Source: Mycobacterium phage prophiGD17-1. From it: a stretch of 51,224 nucleotides of DNA. Made by a program: the position numbers and the translations under genes. Each line of letters opens with the position of its first letter. Positions within the stretch are counted from its first letter, which is position 1. A model generated the notes under the pieces. That model saw nothing but the letters and a program-made list of their open reading frames with translations. It did not search any database and was not told the DNA's origin. The DNA is taken from sequence record MW584165.1; one strand, written 5' to 3'. Below, piece after piece: positions 4,883-51,224 of this stretch.

Positions 4883-5325
4883 CCGTCCGGCGCGGTACCA
4901 CGAACCGCAATGATCGTGGCTCGGCCGAAGATCGGCGGCGCCGCAGGCAATGGCTGCTCGACACGTTCGGCGATGGCACCACATGCCGGTGCTCGACATG
5001 CCCGACCGTCTTGGACTTCGACAGCATCACCGTTGACCGGCATCCGGTCGCGGGCGTTGACGGTGGCACGTACCGGCGCGGCAACATCCGGCCACAGTGC
5101 GCGCCATGTGCGAGTCGCCAGGGCGGTAAGATGTCGGCGCAGCGCCGCCCGCTCAAGGTCGGCCATCTGGTGCGTTTCCGCAAGGGCGGCAAGGTGTACC
5201 GCATCCACTCTGTTTGGAGCCAGGCTAGCTGCGTCATCCTCGACAGGGCCGATCACCCTGACGGCACCAGACGGGTGCCCCGTGGCTGGCACCCCGTCGA
5301 CAGGTTGATTCGGGTGCCCGCATGA
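4879..5325 (+). CDS. HNH-like endonuclease (putative)
   Basis: ATGA overlap. CRCSTC...DRHP...GNIRPQCAPC is consistent with a Cys4 zinc-ribbon HNH fold. Confidence 0.5.
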   Translation: MTVRRGTTNRNDRGSAEDRRRRRQWLLDTFGDGTTCRCSTCPTVLDFDSITVDRHPVAGVDGGTYRRGNIRPQCAPCASRQGGKMSAQRRPLKVGHLVRFRKGGKVYRIHSVWSQASCVILDRADHPDGTRRVPRGWHPVDRLIRVPA

Positions 5326-11002: not shown

Positions 11003-11865
11003 CCATGCCCGTATCCATGTGGATTTTCATCGTCCTGGCGGTGCTCGCCGTCATTGGCGTGATCATCGGCATCTTCGCCCGAGGCGAAGAGCGCGCGGTG
11101 AGCTTCGCAGGCGCGATTGTCGCCGGAGTTGTCGGCCTGGTGTTCTTCGCGTTCGCCGCGACGACCGTCGTTGGCACGCGCCAGATCGGCATCGAGACGA
11201 AGTTCGGCCGCCCCACTGGCACGACGCTCACCAACGGCCTGCACCTCAAGTCGCCGGTCACCTCGGTAACCGAGATGGACGGTGCCGTGCAGATCGACCA
11301 GCACAAGGACAATGGACGTATCAAGGTCCGGCTGGGCAACAGCTCGACAGCGGACGCTGACGTGTCGGTGCGCTGGCAGATCAAGCCGGACGCGGCACCC
11401 GAATTATTCTTGCAATACAAGACATTCGACAACGTGCGCATCAACCTGGTGACCCGCAACCTACAGGTTGCCCTCAACGAGGTGTTCGCAACGTTCGATC
11501 CTCTGGCGCCGAAGAACCTTGACCGTTCACCGCTGCCCGAGCTGTCGACGCAGGCGAAGAACATTCTGGCCGCGAAGGTCGGCAGTCAGGTCGAGATTCT
11601 GGATGTCGCGGTGCCCACCATCGACTACGACGACGGCACCGAGCAGAAGATCAACCAGCTCAACCAGGAACGGGCGGCGACCGCTGTCGCCGAGCAGGCC
11701 AAGAAGACCGCCGTAGAGCAGGCCAAGGCCAACGGCGAGTTGGCCGGATCGGTCTCGCGCGACCCCAACGTCCTGGTCTCGAAGTGCTTGGACATCGCCC
11801 GCGAGAAGGGCTTGGCGCTTCTGTGCTGGCCCACAACCCCTGTCCCCACCATCCCCGTCAAGTAA
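10999..11865 (+). CDS. SPFH / band-7 (stomatin-prohibitin-HflKC) family membrane protein
   Basis: N-terminal TM helix, then GIETKFGRPTGTTLTNGLHLKSPV (the characteristic band-7 PGLHFK-like motif). Overlaps the upstream stop. Start is TTG 10999 or ATG 11005. Confidence 0.65.
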   Translation: MTMPVSMWIFIVLAVLAVIGVIIGIFARGEERAVSFAGAIVAGVVGLVFFAFAATTVVGTRQIGIETKFGRPTGTTLTNGLHLKSPVTSVTEMDGAVQIDQHKDNGRIKVRLGNSSTADADVSVRWQIKPDAAPELFLQYKTFDNVRINLVTRNLQVALNEVFATFDPLAPKNLDRSPLPELSTQAKNILAAKVGSQVEILDVAVPTIDYDDGTEQKINQLNQERAATAVAEQAKKTAVEQAKANGELAGSVSRDPNVLVSKCLDIAREKGLALLCWPTTPVPTIPVK

Positions 11866-11936
11866 GGCGGCGGCTGGCGGCGGGTGTCCCCCCGCCCCGC
11901 CGTCAGCCGTCCAAAACCCCCAGAGAGGCAACCGCA

Positions 11937-13133
11937 GTGAATCGCATCCCCGGCCACAACCTGTTGAACTTCGCCAGCCAGATCGATGACAACACCATCG
12001 AGCAGGCCAAGGAAACGGCATCCATGCCGTTCATCCACCCGCACGTTGCACTCATGCCGGACGCGCACAGCGGCAAGGGCTCGGCGGTCGGCACCGTCAT
12101 CCCCACAGTCGGCGCTGTCATCCCGGCAGCGGTCGGCGTAGACATCGGGTGCGGCATGATCGCGGTGCGCACCGCCTACGTCGGTGCCCATATCGACGGC
12201 CGGGACTTGTCGAAGCTGCGCGCCTCGGTGGAGTCGGCCATCCCGCTCTCCCCAGGCAACTACAACCGGAGCCTGGACCGGTTCGACTTCACTGCCGAGA
12301 AGATCGCCGGACTTGAGCACATGGCCAAGTACGACGTTGATCTGTCGCACTCGCCGAAGTGGCGCGAGCAGCTGGGCAGCCTCGGCGGCGGCAACCATTT
12401 CATCGAACTATGCGTCGACAACTACGAGCGGGTGTGGCTATTCCTGCATTCCGGTTCACGCGGTGTCGGCAACAAGATCGCCCAGAAGCACATCAAGGTG
12501 GCTCAGGACTTGTGCAAACGGTACTGGATTGACCTGCCGAACCGTGACCTCGCCTACCTGGCTGAGGACACCGACGAATTCAACTCGTACATCAAGGAAT
12601 TGGCGTGGGCGCAGCGTTTCGCCTACCTAAACCGTGCCGAAATGATGGACCGCTTCCTGCGGGCATTCGCGCACTGGATGGGCTCCGACCCGACCAACGC
12701 CGACGAGGTGGCCAGTATCGAGGTCGAGCGCATCAACTGCCACCACAACTACACCGCCCGGCAGAAGATCGGGAACGTCGATGTGTGGCTGACCCGCAAG
12801 GGCGCTATCGACGCCAATGAGGGTGTTATGGGCGTCATCCCCGGCTCGATGGGCACCCGCTCGTATGTGGTGCGCGGCAAGGGCAACCCGGCAGGCCTGT
12901 ATTCAGCACCGCACGGCGCCGGACGCCGGTTCTCGCGCACCAAGGCCCGCGAACTGTTCACCGCCGACGACTTGGCCAAGGCCATGGCCGGTATCGAATA
13001 CCGGCACGGTGAGGCGTGGATCGATGAGATTCCGCAGGCATACAAGGACATTGACGTTGTGATGGACGACGCCGCCGAGTTGGTCGAGGTCGTCGCCGAG
13101 CTGCGCCAGGTCATGAACGTGAAGGGACAGTGA
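11937..13133 (+). CDS. rtcB: RtcB-family RNA ligase
   Basis: MPDAHSGKGSAVG, GGGNHF, HSGSRGVG and CHHNY are diagnostic RtcB motifs. GTG start at 11937 after AGAGAGG, aligning with the N-terminus of E. coli RtcB. The table's 11784 start is rejected. Confidence 0.85.
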   Translation: MNRIPGHNLLNFASQIDDNTIEQAKETASMPFIHPHVALMPDAHSGKGSAVGTVIPTVGAVIPAAVGVDIGCGMIAVRTAYVGAHIDGRDLSKLRASVESAIPLSPGNYNRSLDRFDFTAEKIAGLEHMAKYDVDLSHSPKWREQLGSLGGGNHFIELCVDNYERVWLFLHSGSRGVGNKIAQKHIKVAQDLCKRYWIDLPNRDLAYLAEDTDEFNSYIKELAWAQRFAYLNRAEMMDRFLRAFAHWMGSDPTNADEVASIEVERINCHHNYTARQKIGNVDVWLTRKGAIDANEGVMGVIPGSMGTRSYVVRGKGNPAGLYSAPHGAGRRFSRTKARELFTADDLAKAMAGIEYRHGEAWIDEIPQAYKDIDVVMDDAAELVEVVAELRQVMNVKGQ

Positions 13134-47337: not shown

Positions 47338-47754
47338 ATGGACGCCAAGAGGGCCATTCGCGAGATTATCGCGCAGATGCCGAACTTCTTTAGCTGGACC
47401 TACAAAGAAACAATCGGCCACGGCCACTACCAGACCAGGGTCTATTCACAAGATGACATCGCCGGTCATGTCGCAACGACGCTGCTAGACAAACTGGGGG
47501 ACAAGGGATGTCAGGTAGTTTCACTACCGCCAGTAGAAACAGACGAATACGGCTGCCGCACCGTCCGGGTTCCGATCATTGGTCAAGGCTGGGCGTACGG
47601 GGAGATACGTATCAGCGATAACGCAGATCAATTGGTGATCGTGGACGTTCCATCACGGCTGCCGGTCGACAGTGCACCTGCGGTTGCAGCCGCACTGCTG
47701 GCCACACATGCAGCGGCGCGCGAATATCGGAGCCATTGGGAGCGAGGCGACTAG
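47338..47754 (+). CDS. hypothetical protein
   Basis: 138-aa ORF, the last plus-strand gene. Confidence 0.5.
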   Translation: MDAKRAIREIIAQMPNFFSWTYKETIGHGHYQTRVYSQDDIAGHVATTLLDKLGDKGCQVVSLPPVETDEYGCRTVRVPIIGQGWAYGEIRISDNADQLVIVDVPSRLPVDSAPAVAAALLATHAAAREYRSHWERGD

Positions 47755-47769
47755 CCGACGACATGCAAC

Positions 47770-47800
47770 CAGCCCCGCCTTCGGCAATGCCTGGGGCGGG
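47770..47800. terminator. short GC hairpin (CCCCGCC...GGGGCGGG) between convergent genes
   Basis: Seen directly between the 47754 plus-strand stop and the 47829 minus-strand stop. Confidence 0.35.
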
Positions 47801-47828
47801 ACTGGTTCGCACACTGGCGAGGACTTCG

Positions 47829-48095
47829 CTATGCCTTCCAGTAGTGGTTCTTGCTGACCGAGATGTACACCACGTTCAGCCAGCAGATGAAGACGCCGAA
47901 CAGCAGATGCTTGGTAAGTGAGTGCGCCGTCTGCTGGCGCACATACAGTGCACCGTCCTGGCCCTGTAGGGCTGGCGCTTGCGGCGGCGGGGGTGGTGCC
48001 GTGACGGTCCAGTTAGTGCCGTCGAAATACCGCTGCCCTGGCGCGCCCGATGGGTCGGGATACCAACCCGGTGCCGCCGACTGTGGTGCTGACAT
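47829..48095 (-). CDS. DUF2510-family membrane protein
   Basis: N-terminal GWYPDPSGAPGQRYFDGTNWT (the DUF2510 motif), then a Pro-rich linker and a C-terminal TM helix. Confidence 0.55.
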   Translation of the reverse strand: MSAPQSAAPGWYPDPSGAPGQRYFDGTNWTVTAPPPPPQAPALQGQDGALYVRQQTAHSLTKHLLFGVFICWLNVVYISVSKNHYWKA

Positions 48096-48202
48096 GAGCG
48101 AAGACCTTCCCCTCGATTCGATACCCCTGACCGGGGGAAGCGTACGCGCCGCTCACAGCACACGTACAGGGAACCGTCATCATGCGGCCCCTTGGCGATG
48201 CA

Positions 48203-48673
48203 CTACCCGGCGTCGGCGAATTCGGGTTGCTCGCGCAGGTGCCAGCCTGGCGCAACGTCGCCTGTGTCGTAGTAGCCCAGGAATAGTCTGATGGCCTCGG
48301 TTGGTGTCAATACCTCTGATGGGCGTACCGGGTAAGCGCTATCGCCGTTGTAGACCACTTCAGTCTCGGATTCGTTTGCCGCAGAAGGTCTTCCGATGGT
48401 GTAATGGCGCCGCACACCGTCAGCCTCAAGCCGTTTAATCTCGACCGTGAGCCTGCCATCCCTACCACAGGCTTGGATGCGCTCAGGCGAGTACGGGAAC
48501 TCATCGTATCGGACCTCTGGCGCAACCGGGTAGATTGAGTAGTACGTGTATCCCTTTGTGCCTAAACGATTTATGCCCGCTGCGAGCTGGCCTGGTATTT
48601 CTTCCGTAAAGTCACTGGTACGCATTTTGGCCAGGTTTGATTCTGCGATGTGGGTTGGCTTGTCAATCCTCAT
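48203..48673 (-). CDS. putative immunity protein for the upstream polymorphic toxin
   Basis: Its ATG overlaps the toxin stop codon (ATGA on the minus strand). 156 aa with no secretion signal. Confidence 0.6.
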   Translation of the reverse strand: MRIDKPTHIAESNLAKMRTSDFTEEIPGQLAAGINRLGTKGYTYYSIYPVAPEVRYDEFPYSPERIQACGRDGRLTVEIKRLEADGVRRHYTIGRPSAANESETEVVYNGDSAYPVRPSEVLTPTEAIRLFLGYYDTGDVAPGWHLREQPEFADAG

Positions 48674-50319
48674 TCCGCAGGAACCTCCACAACTCTCACC
48701 GAGGTGATCTTCACTGTTTCCACGACGCCTTGTTCATTGGTGATCGTCACATAGGCCGGATTCTCATACGACACAGCATCATCGAACGCCCTCTGCTGGC
48801 CATCCCTCGACGCACCCCCCGACTTCACCTCGATGCCCTCGTACGTACCATCCGGCTTACGGGCATGTCCGTCGTAGTAGCGGCCATGGTCAACGCCGTC
48901 CACTCTCGACTTTTTCGTCTCGGTGCTCACCCAACGCCCGGTCTCGTCTTTGTACTTGGCGACACCCTCTGCCTCTGGTTGGCGACCGTATCCCCGAGCT
49001 GTCCCGCCTCGGCCTGTGAACGTGCCGATGGAATCGCGGTCGTCGCCACGGTTGATGCCCTCGCCGGGCCGTCCAGTCCGGGCCTCCATCACCGTCACAC
49101 CGCTGACCGCAGCCTCTTTCGAGAGGTCAAGGGCTGGCGGTATGGCGACGACCGCGCCACCAGCAAGCAAGCCAGCACCGGCAACAGCGACGGGCGCAGC
49201 GACCGGTGTGGCAGCCCCACCGGTAAAGACCTCACCGACGCCTGCCGCAGCCATCATGTCGTAGCCGACCGCCATCATGCCGACCCCAGCTGCCATCTGG
49301 ATTGTCTGGCCGGGGTTGTCGATCATGGCCTGCCCCAAGGATGCAGCGGCATTCACCACCGGGGCCACGGTGTTGTATATCTCGTTACCGAAAAGCTCAA
49401 CCTGCATCTGTACCAACGACTTTAGGGTGTCGATAACCATCGATGCACCCTGAATGATCGGCGCCAGCAGCAGCGCGAGTGACTGCACTTCGGACTTGAA
49501 CTGGTTGACGATGTTGCGGATGTCGGCGGCGATTTTCTTTATTTCGTCGTCGTCTTCGCCGGTAATCCAGTCCACGACCTGTTTGGCACCGGTCAGCGGA
49601 TTTACCAAGCGGGCCAACAGGTCCAGTATCGACGCATGCGCCGTATCGATCTTGGCCGCGTAGTCGTTGAGCTTGGTGCCCATGGTGCCGCACATGCCGC
49701 CGACCTCGCCGACAGCACCGTCAATCGTCTTGAACGCACTATCGATCTTGGGACCTTCGGGTATCTGCTGGGCCTGCGCGGTTGCCTGCGCCCCCGCCAG
49801 TCCGGCCTGCTGAGCGGTGAATGCCGCACCGGCAGCCGTCCAAGCGGCGCCAGCGGCGCGCAGCTTCGCCGAATCGCCGTTTGGCCAAATCATTCCGATG
49901 AACGGCTCCACCAGGAACCAACCCGGTGGGTCGCCAACATCGCTACCCACCGCAGACGGCGGGGCCCCGGCCTTCACCGAGGGAGTGGGCGAGGCGGCGG
50001 GCAGTGGGTCGCCGCCCTTGCCGTCGATATTGGACGCCACCTCGGCACGCGAATAGTTAGTCGCCGAAGCCCGGATGCCGTCAGCGGCCCGCCCCGCACC
50101 GTTGGACACGTCCACCATCGCCTCAAGGAGTTCCTTGGCTGACGAGTCATACGACCGCGCGAACACGACCCCGGCGGGGTCATCCCCACCCATACCTGCC
50201 GAACTCGACAGCGCCGACTGCAATGCCGACAGCGCAGAACCCCACCCGCCCACCGAGCTGGAAACCGTTCTACCGGCGCCATCGAGGGCAACCGGGTCGA
50301 CATGAATCGGGGGTGCCAT
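48670..50319 (-). CDS. ESX/type VII-associated polymorphic toxin: WXG100-like N-terminal domain with YxxxE export motif, central Ala/Gly-rich hydrophobic region, C-terminal putative PD-(D/E)xK-type nuclease toxin domain
   Basis: 549 aa. N-terminal ~100 aa helical domain with a GGWGSA motif and NYSRAE (Y-x-x-x-E). A second W-x-G-like segment (IWPNGDS). C-terminal KPDGTYEGIEVK (PD...E-x-K). Directly downstream of two WXG100 genes, with a 2-nt gap. Confidence 0.75.
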   Translation of the reverse strand: MAPPIHVDPVALDGAGRTVSSSVGGWGSALSALQSALSSSAGMGGDDPAGVVFARSYDSSAKELLEAMVDVSNGAGRAADGIRASATNYSRAEVASNIDGKGGDPLPAASPTPSVKAGAPPSAVGSDVGDPPGWFLVEPFIGMIWPNGDSAKLRAAGAAWTAAGAAFTAQQAGLAGAQATAQAQQIPEGPKIDSAFKTIDGAVGEVGGMCGTMGTKLNDYAAKIDTAHASILDLLARLVNPLTGAKQVVDWITGEDDDEIKKIAADIRNIVNQFKSEVQSLALLLAPIIQGASMVIDTLKSLVQMQVELFGNEIYNTVAPVVNAAASLGQAMIDNPGQTIQMAAGVGMMAVGYDMMAAAGVGEVFTGGAATPVAAPVAVAGAGLLAGGAVVAIPPALDLSKEAAVSGVTVMEARTGRPGEGINRGDDRDSIGTFTGRGGTARGYGRQPEAEGVAKYKDETGRWVSTETKKSRVDGVDHGRYYDGHARKPDGTYEGIEVKSGGASRDGQQRAFDDAVSYENPAYVTITNEQGVVETVKITSVRVVEVPAE

Positions 50320-50321
50320 CG

Positions 50322-50612
50322 CTATGCCCAGTTCTGCATGTTCTTGGCAGCGGCGCCCGTGTAATTGCCGTGCGCGGCGTGGCTCGCGCTACGTAGGCCC
50401 CTGAGCGCTTCGCGCATCTGCTCGGCGCCCTTGGCCCACTTCTCGTGCGCCTGCGTGTGGGCCGTGGCGGCTTCACCTGTGAAGGTGGCGTGCAGGTTGT
50501 GAACCTCGGTGTCCATGGCCGCTATCGACGCCTCGGCTCGCTGCTCAACCTCTGCCATGCGCTCGATGATCCGCATTAGCTCGTCGGGCACAATGCCGAA
50601 TTCACCTGACAT
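50322..50612 (-). CDS. WXG100 (Esx-like) family protein
   Basis: 96-aa helical hairpin protein with a central HEKWAKGAE W-x-G-like motif and a strong RBS (GGGGGAGAGG). Typical ~100-aa size. Confidence 0.7.
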   Translation of the reverse strand: MSGEFGIVPDELMRIIERMAEVEQRAEASIAAMDTEVHNLHATFTGEAATAHTQAHEKWAKGAEQMREALRGLRSASHAAHGNYTGAAAKNMQNWA

Positions 50613-50621
50613 CCTCTCCCC

Positions 50622-50933
50622 CTACATTCCGCCAGCGGCGTTGACGTTGGCGGCGGTGGCCGCATCCTGGCCCACGAACGCATCCCCGGCGCTCGCCAAC
50701 AAGCTGCCCATCTGCGCAAGGCCCTGGTGCACCAGCTTGGCGCCCTCGTACCACTGGAACCACCGCGCGGTGAACGCTGCCGCCGACCCACCAGACCAAC
50801 CGGAGCCGACAAATCGCGACACCTCGGCGTCGAGGGCATCCAGCTCCGTCGCCAAACCGCCTGCGGTCGCAGTGACCAACCGCGAAACCCGCTGCAACTC
50901 TTCTGGCGAAACCCCGAGGACCCCTCCACTCAT
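50622..50933 (-). CDS. WXG100 (Esx-like) family protein
   Basis: 103 aa from the internal ATG (MSGGVLGVSPEELQ...) with GSGWSGGSAAAF (W-x-G). The 80-aa N-terminal extension of the table ORF is Arg/Pro-rich and looks non-coding. Confidence 0.65.
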   Translation of the reverse strand: MSGGVLGVSPEELQRVSRLVTATAGGLATELDALDAEVSRFVGSGWSGGSAAAFTARWFQWYEGAKLVHQGLAQMGSLLASAGDAFVGQDAATAANVNAAGGM

Positions 50934-51099
50934 TAGCGGATGGTATCGCCGCCTGGTTTGCCACCGCAACGGCAGAACTCGCTTACCCGGACAGGCTGGC
51001 ACTGCACCTATGGGCGGCATCGCGTGATGCGGTCCGTGGCGGCCAGGTTCGCCCCGGTCAGGGCCAGTATCGGTGGGGGCGTAGCCAGTCGCCGAGCAC

Positions 51100-51185
51100 G
51101 TCGCGCGAATTACTGTCCATTTATTGTCCACTGCGGACCCTATGTGGGTCCGTGGCGAACATTTGCAGGCCAATGACCTGCATGT
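51100..51185. repeat. attR-proximal arm: TGTCCAT-ttat-TGTCCAC direct repeat, palindrome GGACCCTATGTGGGTCC, and inverted repeat TGCAGG-ccaatga-CCTGCA; candidate arm-type / IHF sites and/or promoter of the esx-toxin operon
   Basis: Repeats seen directly. The GTCCAC motif is shared with the attL arm. Confidence 0.45.
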
Positions 51186-51224
51186 TTGGTGGAGCTAAGG
51201 GGAATCGAACCCCTGACCTTCTCG
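51186..51224 (-). tRNA. attR core: 3' portion of a minus-strand tRNA gene (body continues beyond the window end); isotype not determinable
   Basis: Identical 39-bp repeat. The CCA end lies at about 51187-51189 on the minus strand and the window ends inside the tRNA. Acceptor 3' strand is TAGCTCC with discriminator A. Confidence 0.65.

Follow-up and report, generated by a model that had tools for sequence, protein, structure and literature searches.

A putative ESX polymorphic toxin-immunity cassette with a predicted nuclease payload at the attR junction of Mycobacterium phage prophiGD17-1

Described systems and the layout of the cassette

The subject of this work is a four-gene minus-strand cassette at the right end of Mycobacterium phage prophiGD17-1 (MW584165.1), which was analysed over its whole stretch of 51,224 nucleotides, referred to below as the window. 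Three kinds of described system are among the closest. In the first kind, the esxF-esxE-cpnT-ift locus of M. tuberculosis and MAB_3112-3115 of M. abscessus, two Esx genes likewise precede a CpnT-type toxin gene, with a protective gene downstream. The export of CpnT is reported to depend on EsxE-EsxF and on ESX-4. The second is represented by EatA, an ESX-4-dependent inter-mycobacterial toxin of M. abscessus with the helpers TapA1/TapA2 and the inhibitor EatI (Benedict et al. 2026, PMC13444075). A survey of 946 M. abscessus genomes in the same work revealed many such loci, nuclease payloads included. The third comprises the polymorphic toxin-immunity (PT-Imm) cassettes of M. abscessus prophages, which adjoin the attachment junctions, have WXG-100 partners and are expected to be served by ESX-3 or ESX-4 export (Dedrick et al. 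2021, PMC8092301). In Table S3 of that work, prophiGD13-2 is the prototype of PT-Imm configuration 't'.

Judged from its sequence, the prophiGD17-1 locus is very probably a prophage-borne ESX (type VII) polymorphic toxin-immunity cassette of configuration 't', organised on the esxF-esxE-cpnT-ift plan. The original prediction, made from the DNA letters, had placed four minus-strand open reading frames (ORFs) here, and the ORF listing agrees with it to the nucleotide (Table 1). The genes are tightly packed: 9 nucleotides (nt) separate the two small genes and 2 nt separate the second small gene from the toxin gene. The toxin stop and the immunity start share a 4-nt ATGA, which is the overlap that had been noted.

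As seen in megablast comparisons with GenBank phage records, the stretch from 48198 to 50969 has 97% DNA identity to genes 65-68 of prophiGD13-2. It is also 92-97% identical to six further M. abscessus prophages, namely prophi52-1, prophi91-1, prophiGD44-1, prophi104-2, prophiGD51-1 and prophiCCUG48898T-1. In all these records the annotation reads WXG motif, WXG motif, polymorphic toxin, and polymorphic toxin immunity protein, and the four genes have the same order and orientation as those of prophiGD17-1. At the protein level, 543 of the 549 toxin residues and all 156 residues of the immunity protein are identical to those of prophiGD13-2. The original prediction was right that M. abscessus prophages have been described to carry similar cassettes (Dedrick et al. 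2021, PMC8092301). The accompanying suggestion that this toxin-immunity combination may be new does not hold, as the same pair is annotated in prophiGD13-2 and its relatives as configuration 't'. The cassette is already known, and it is uncharacterised in the biochemical sense only.

Both small proteins belong to the WXG100 family, as had been expected from their sequences. With a curated Pfam cut-off of 27.3 bits for WXG100 (PF06013), the 103-amino-acid (aa) protein scores 61.3 bits (E 1.1e-16) and the 96-aa protein 42.8 bits (E 6.5e-11). Against the NCBIfam model WXG100_ESAT6 (TIGR03930, cut-off 44.85), the former passes with 48.8 bits (E 6.1e-13) and the latter, at 41.9 bits, lies just under the cut-off. 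The W-x-G position is occupied by W46-S-G48 in the 103-aa protein and by F44-T-G46 in the 96-aa protein. The nearest solved relatives of the pair are the two chains of 4i0x, M. abscessus MAB_3112/MAB_3113. The best solved relative of the 96-aa protein is MAB_3113 (4i0x_B, E 5.8e-6), which has been named EsxE (PMC13491425).

A difference in gene start was also observed. In the GenBank records of prophages of cluster MabC, the first WXG gene is annotated as 91 aa (L001 5428-5703, L003 3955-4230, L004 3925-4200), a form 12 codons shorter than the one given here. Since all four sister cassettes have kept the ATG of the 103-aa version and residue 8 is already part of the match to the WXG100 profile, the 103-aa start fits better.

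Table 1. Features of the cassette and its surroundings, in window coordinates (pLDDT, predicted local distance difference test)
Feature	Coordinates	Strand	Basis
EsxF-like WXG100 protein, 103 aa	50622..50933	-	Pfam, NCBIfam
EsxE-like WXG100 protein, 96 aa	50322..50612	-	Pfam
Toxin, 549 aa	48670..50319	-	ORF listing
Putative immunity protein, 156 aa	48203..48673	-	ATG overlaps toxin TGA
Toxin residues 1-330, CpnT-like helical carrier	49330..50319	-	CpnT homology, PF25547, invariant columns
Toxin residues 331-400, Ala/Gly-rich hydrophobic segment	49120..49329	-	Composition, hydropathy
Toxin residues 401-445, linker	48985..49119	-	Predicted disordered, pLDDT <55 (AlphaFold2)
Toxin residues 446-549, C-terminal domain, predicted PD-(D/E)xK nuclease	48673..48984	-	AlphaFold2, invariant residues
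Exchanged module, 2.77 kb	48198..50969	-	97% common with MabC prophages, MabD-like backbone
Candidate cassette promoter	50940..50969	-	-35 TTGCGG 50969-50964, 18-nt spacer, -10 TACCAT 50945-50940
attR core, tRNA-Ala(CGC) 3' end	51186..51224	-	Identical copy at 2-40, the attL core

Toxin carrier, C-terminal domain and immunity partner

Residues 4-310 of the toxin are 49% identical, over 308 residues, to an M. cookii protein named CpnT by NCBI. Because this homology is accompanied by two WXG100 genes upstream, the locus can be said to be built like esxF-esxE-cpnT-ift; it has the CpnT-like N-terminal domain after two esx genes that characterizes a CpnT-type operon. The likeness ends with the carrier. 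The alignment to CpnT stops at residue 310, and the C-terminal TNT domain (NAD+ glycohydrolase) of CpnT is absent, its place being taken by a predicted PD-(D/E)xK nuclease. The toxin is also shorter than M. cookii CpnT (549 aa versus 732 aa). The locus also differs from the CpnT operon in that it is prophage-borne, its immunity protein has a predicted DddI-like fold, and no SigM-type -35 was seen upstream.

The significant Pfam match of the carrier is WXG100_2 (PF25547) at residues 142-236 (E 1.6e-7), a family found in 20/20 full-length homologs. The first ~100 residues had been described as WXG100-like. A weak Pfam WXG100 signal is indeed present at residues 5-93 (E 0.11-0.24), and a weak signal was also obtained for 13 of the 20 homologs (best E 3.4e-4); the significant match, however, lies elsewhere. 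The choice of GGWGSA, around W26, as the WXG motif must be abandoned: the corresponding triplet is W-D-S in the 99%-identical protein of prophiGD13-2, and W26 is variable among the 20 homologs. In the middle of the first ~95 residues, M43-x-G45 followed by D47-P-A-G50 is invariant in these homologs. The YxxxD/E signal proposed within NYSRAE survives in part, with Y89 invariant and position 93 mostly E but N in five homologs.

The hydrophobic, Ala/Gly-rich middle that had been noticed was recovered at residues 331-400, where Ala and Gly make up 43% of the residues, 6% are charged, and the Kyte-Doolittle profile peaks at ~376-391. The homologs have ...LDATGVGA..VGVP.N.AG... in common within this segment, and its Gly/Pro columns are conserved. 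A like Ala/Gly segment is also present in unrelated carriers with the same C-terminal domain. Within the linker that follows, the motif (D)RGDGRD..G.F is conserved and recurs across diverse homologs.

Polymorphic toxins, as delineated by Zhang et al. (2012) and for the PT-Imm loci by Dedrick et al. (2021), combine a constant N-terminal trafficking region with a modular, variable C-terminus and an adjacent downstream immunity gene that co-varies with the toxin domain. All of these features can be seen here. The toxins of four sister prophages are near-identical up to residue 452 and divergent after it, in keeping with the divergent C-terminal domain of the original prediction. In an exhaustive HMMER search, residues 400-549 gave 184 clusters at 50% identity, and the toxin-domain match is located at the C-terminal end in every full-length protein among the matches listed. 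The carriers of this domain include CpnT-like, other helical and Rhs-repeat proteins.

The payload is predicted, at moderate confidence, to be a metal-dependent nuclease of the PD-(D/E)xK type, VRR-NUC-like. The AlphaFold2 model, built from an 18-sequence alignment, has pLDDT >90 for residues 446-549. Its elements run in the order helix, three strands, helix, two strands (alpha-beta-beta-beta-alpha-beta-beta), which contains the alpha-beta-beta-beta-alpha-beta core fold of the PD-(D/E)xK nucleases. Five residues, E449, D483, E497, K499 and Q509, are invariant in 39 diverse homologs and are the candidate catalytic residues. D483 stands at the start of strand 2 and E497-V-K499 on strand 3 of the model, which is the classical PD-(D/E)xK arrangement. 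Additionally, weak Pfam VRR_NUC matches were obtained in 3 of 20 homologs (E 0.013 or weaker). One weak PDB profile match falls inside the C-terminal region of the P. protegens RhsA chain (7q97) with the pattern D...EVK.GS...Q, and RhsA's toxin domain is a predicted DNase. VRR-NUC/FAN1-type nucleases and the RhsA toxin domain have the same predicted core fold and E...D...ExK...Q pattern as the domain studied here, but none of the matches is significant by sequence. The window domain differs from them in its extra conserved (D)RGDGRD leader and two C-terminal strands. A sequence search of the PDB with the whole toxin returned chance matches only, and a Foldseek search of the PDB with the toxin domain returned nothing at E 0.001 or better, the proteins that it listed being of the same kind but not significant. 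PHROGs and PADLOC likewise gave nothing for the toxin domain when queried with the full-length cassette proteins.

A different activity is implied by the database names. NCBI and UniRef entries among the homologs (P0007, P0008, P0010, P0015, P0020, P0025 and others) are called NAD(+)--arginine ADP-ribosyltransferase, and on this basis the C-terminal domain would be an enzyme of that kind. This is hardly credible. The true ADP-ribosyltransferase relatives (PF03496, PF01129) are proteins of 710-740 aa, aligned over only the N-terminal 56-64% of the query, so that they share only the carrier. Neither PF03496 nor PF01129 was matched in the window toxin or in the 20 aligned homologs, and the structure model and the conserved D...ExK point to the PD-(D/E)xK fold. 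The ADP-ribosyltransferase assignment was rejected; the name is probably wrong for these homologs and was probably transferred to them via the common CpnT-like carrier.

The 156-aa protein encoded downstream appears to be cytoplasmic, neither a signal peptide nor a lipobox being seen by eye. It had been proposed as the immunity protein from its overlapping start, and several observations are in accord with this. The immunity proteins of the sister prophages are 100%, 90% and 56% identical to it, in step with the divergence of the toxin C-termini. An immunity homolog lies directly downstream of the same toxin domain in three further loci, L006, L008 and L010 (E 6e-16 to 6e-50). The L006 toxin is built on another N-terminal carrier and accompanied by a single helper gene, and the immunity homolog is still linked to it. 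All 89 of the organism-named homologs that were found are from mycobacteria. Co-variation and conserved linkage therefore support the putative immunity role of this protein.

The AlphaFold2 model of the 156-aa protein has a pLDDT of 93.5, and the modelled fold is similar to DddI at a sequence identity of 7%. DddI is the immunity protein of the deaminase toxin DddA of the B. cenocepacia type VI secretion system (6u08); in contrast to DddA, the partner toxin here is without a deaminase motif. No Pfam, NCBIfam, PHROG or PADLOC match was obtained for the 156-aa protein, and no Pfam family was found in any of 36 homologs.

Two side observations concern the immunity family. In the mycobacterial loci L008 (6278-6802) and L010 (6166-6546), the immunity homolog is succeeded by another small conserved gene (MSYDIFAFDPA...) that the window lacks and that could have an additional immunity function or an accessory one. 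The family members P0160 and P0165, both from Mycolicibacterium sp. 120266, have neighbouring locus tags (SBI67_27810 and SBI67_27805), a sign that immunity genes may occur here in tandem or as orphans, as they do at other polymorphic toxin loci.

Export, target and expression

The features described above are consistent with the following course of events. In the lysogen, a promoter belonging to the cassette and situated just inside attR would drive its transcription, and the mRNA may be leaderless, with its start at the ATG at 50933. The immunity protein would bind and block the nuclease domain in the cytoplasm of the producer. A heterodimer of the EsxF-like and EsxE-like proteins would work with the helical N-terminal domain of the toxin, which carries the Y89xxxE93 signal, and the toxin would exit via a host ESX system. 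ESX-4 would be the likeliest route, by analogy with CpnT and EatA. In a recipient without the immunity protein, likeliest another mycobacterium, the C-terminal PD-(D/E)xK domain would then cut nucleic acid.

The comparison with EatA is one of locus plan: one or two small helical helpers, a toxin whose N-terminal carrier is helical, and a downstream gene for an inhibitor. The payloads are different. EatA is a GH183 arabinanase with the cell wall as its substrate, and it is countered by a secreted lipoprotein; here a predicted nuclease is paired with a putatively cytoplasmic immunity protein.

The identity of the victim can be considered from the same evidence. The carrier is homologous to CpnT, whose toxin domain is reported to kill macrophages, and Dedrick et al. 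(PMC8092301) propose that prophage PT-Imm promotes growth in infected host cells. The same cassette might accordingly aim its toxin at the infected host cell, as a virulence factor like CpnT/TNT, and not at competing bacteria. This target is considered unlikely. The toxin domain is common to Rhs-type and other polymorphic toxins of many bacteria, and the dedicated cytoplasmic immunity partner that accompanies it everywhere is a pattern typical of inter-bacterial toxins. ESX-4-dependent inter-mycobacterial killing has, moreover, now been shown in M. abscessus (PMC13444075). Because the payload is common to Rhs-type toxins and always comes with a cytoplasmic immunity protein, a bacterial victim is favoured, although the host-targeting and inter-bacterial roles are not mutually exclusive.

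Export itself could be questioned, since the cassette lies beside an attachment junction, where mycobacteriophage defence genes often sit (PMC8092301), and the logic of a toxin and its antidote would also suit an intracellular module for addiction or for abortive infection (phage defence), serving to stabilise the prophage or to block superinfection. The conserved ESX carrier, however, takes up about 400 toxin residues, and together with the two WXG100 genes it would be superfluous in such a module. Also, no PADLOC defence model was matched. An unexported addiction or defence pair is consequently very improbable, and an exported, ESX-dependent toxin is the preferred reading.

Expression of the cassette would start at the candidate promoter listed in Table 1. 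The candidate -10 is followed, 7 nt downstream, by the ATG at 50933. All four configuration-t cassettes conserve the promoter stretch, and its -35 is exactly where the common module starts. This arrangement would provide a self-contained promoter giving a leaderless mRNA. In other prophages, lysogenic expression of PT-Imm loci has been reported in several lysogens (PMC8092301). Upstream of the chromosomal esxF-esxE-cpnT-like operon, a SigM-type -35, GGAACCG, has been reported. SigM control of the present cassette was dropped for lack of support and not disproved; GGAACCG is not enriched in the window among the matches listed.

Several results weigh against an expressed, ESX-exported nuclease cassette as proposed here. 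Concerning expression, a sigma-70 scan of 47700-51224 gave no promoter at threshold, the proposed one falling below it. By eye, no GGAACCG was found upstream of the cassette, the closest sequence being CGAACCT with 2 mismatches, and PT-Imm loci were silent in some of the lysogens studied by Dedrick et al. (PMC8092301). Concerning the payload, the isolated C-terminal domain had no Pfam match at E up to 10, NCBIfam gave nothing for the toxin domain with the full-length cassette proteins, and the 39-sequence profile of the domain reached only E 0.4-0.45 against PDB sequences.

Module exchange, prophage frame and significance

Outside 48198-50969, the window is 93-96% like prophiGD05-1 and prophiGD12-2 of cluster MabD, which have a different toxin cassette, configuration 'l', in the corresponding position. 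The megablast block overshoots the immunity stop by 5 nt and at its other end reaches 36 nt upstream from the first ATG, and the attR arm beyond it (50970-51185) is a diverged version of the prophiGD12-2 arm. The surroundings of the cassette also differ between clusters. In the configuration 't' prophages of cluster MabC, the cassette is followed by a helix-turn-helix gene and a tyrosine integrase gene, with attP inside the repressor gene. In prophiGD17-1, unlike in these, it stands directly against a tRNA-Ala attR in a backbone like that of prophiGD05-1/GD12-2. The whole 2.77-kb unit has moved as a module between prophage clusters, into a MabD-type backbone.

A wider proposal is put forward tentatively, as somewhat less probable than not. 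The toxin domain and its immunity partner may represent two families without a Pfam or NCBIfam model, a VRR-NUC-like E-D-ExK-Q nuclease with a (D)RGDGRD leader and a DddI-fold inhibitor, which move as a pair among ESX (CpnT-like), Rhs and further types of carrier. Within M. abscessus they would be packaged with two Esx genes and their own leaderless promoter as a 2.77-kb module, which would pass from one prophage cluster to another, unrelated one and equip lysogens to kill other mycobacteria in an ESX-4-dependent manner.

A 39-bp direct repeat at 2-40 and 51186-51224 bounds the window, which is a complete prophage. A 28-nt probe from the repeat interior was found exactly at 6-33 and 51191-51218, with 0 occurrences expected by chance. 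The repeat forms the 3' terminus of a tRNA-Ala(CGC) gene directed into the prophage; at the source locus (L005), the full tRNA-Ala lies at 5058-5133, co-oriented with the cassette. Since the window contains no more of this gene than its 3' 39 nt, ARAGORN detected no tRNA there. The exact 549-aa toxin is encoded on a single public contig, CP063165.1 (GCA_017183835.1). The placement of the cassette at attR was thus right, the repeat being the end of this tRNA gene. The view that the rest of the phage is transcribed rightward throughout was mistaken: the attL side has long minus-strand ORFs, among them 226-1617, at a position annotated as a tyrosine integrase in prophiGD05-1 and GD12-2. Downstream of the immunity gene, at a distance of 107 nt, there is a fifth minus-strand ORF (47829-48095, DUF2510).

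Several other features of the window were recorded. The product of 47829-48095 (-) has 88 aa, with DUF2510, a C-terminal hydrophobic helix and a match to a PHROG 'moron' membrane protein; it lies outside the exchanged module. The 5' end of this ORF and the sequence upstream match gene 90 of prophiGD05-1 and gene 83 of prophiGD12-2, the latter annotated as 'YcdA-like lipoprotein'. The sequence GCGAATTAC(T/C)GTCCA(T/C)TTA(T/G)TGTCCAC occurs as a 27-bp direct repeat at 176-202 and 51105-51131, its two copies flanking the att core once the phage is excised, and is also kept in the right arm of prophiGD12-2. Both copies are probably bound by the integrase as arm-type sites. A GC-rich hairpin (GCAGG-N7-CCTGC, 51164-51182) directly follows the tRNA-Ala 3' end on the phage side of attR. 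It lies between the tRNA and the co-oriented cassette, and may insulate the cassette against read-through; the scan flagged it on the opposite strand only. Apart from the cassette, and unrelated to it, the region 11784-13133 has ~75% DNA identity to genes that carry the annotation RtcB-like RNA ligase in numerous mycobacteriophages.

Among clinical strains of M. abscessus, both competition and virulence are believed to be influenced by ESX toxins that prophages carry, and ESX-4-dependent inter-mycobacterial killing has been shown only recently, for a different payload. This copy of the cassette adds little to the catalogue. It gives, in turn, a testable prediction for one of many functionally uncharacterised payloads, namely that it is a metal-dependent nuclease, for which the catalytic residues are specified, and that its inhibitor has a DddI fold. 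It also serves as a warning that the database name attached to the toxin family, 'NAD(+)--arginine ADP-ribosyltransferase', is probably wrong. Finally, it is a clear case of a cassette moving as a unit between prophage clusters.

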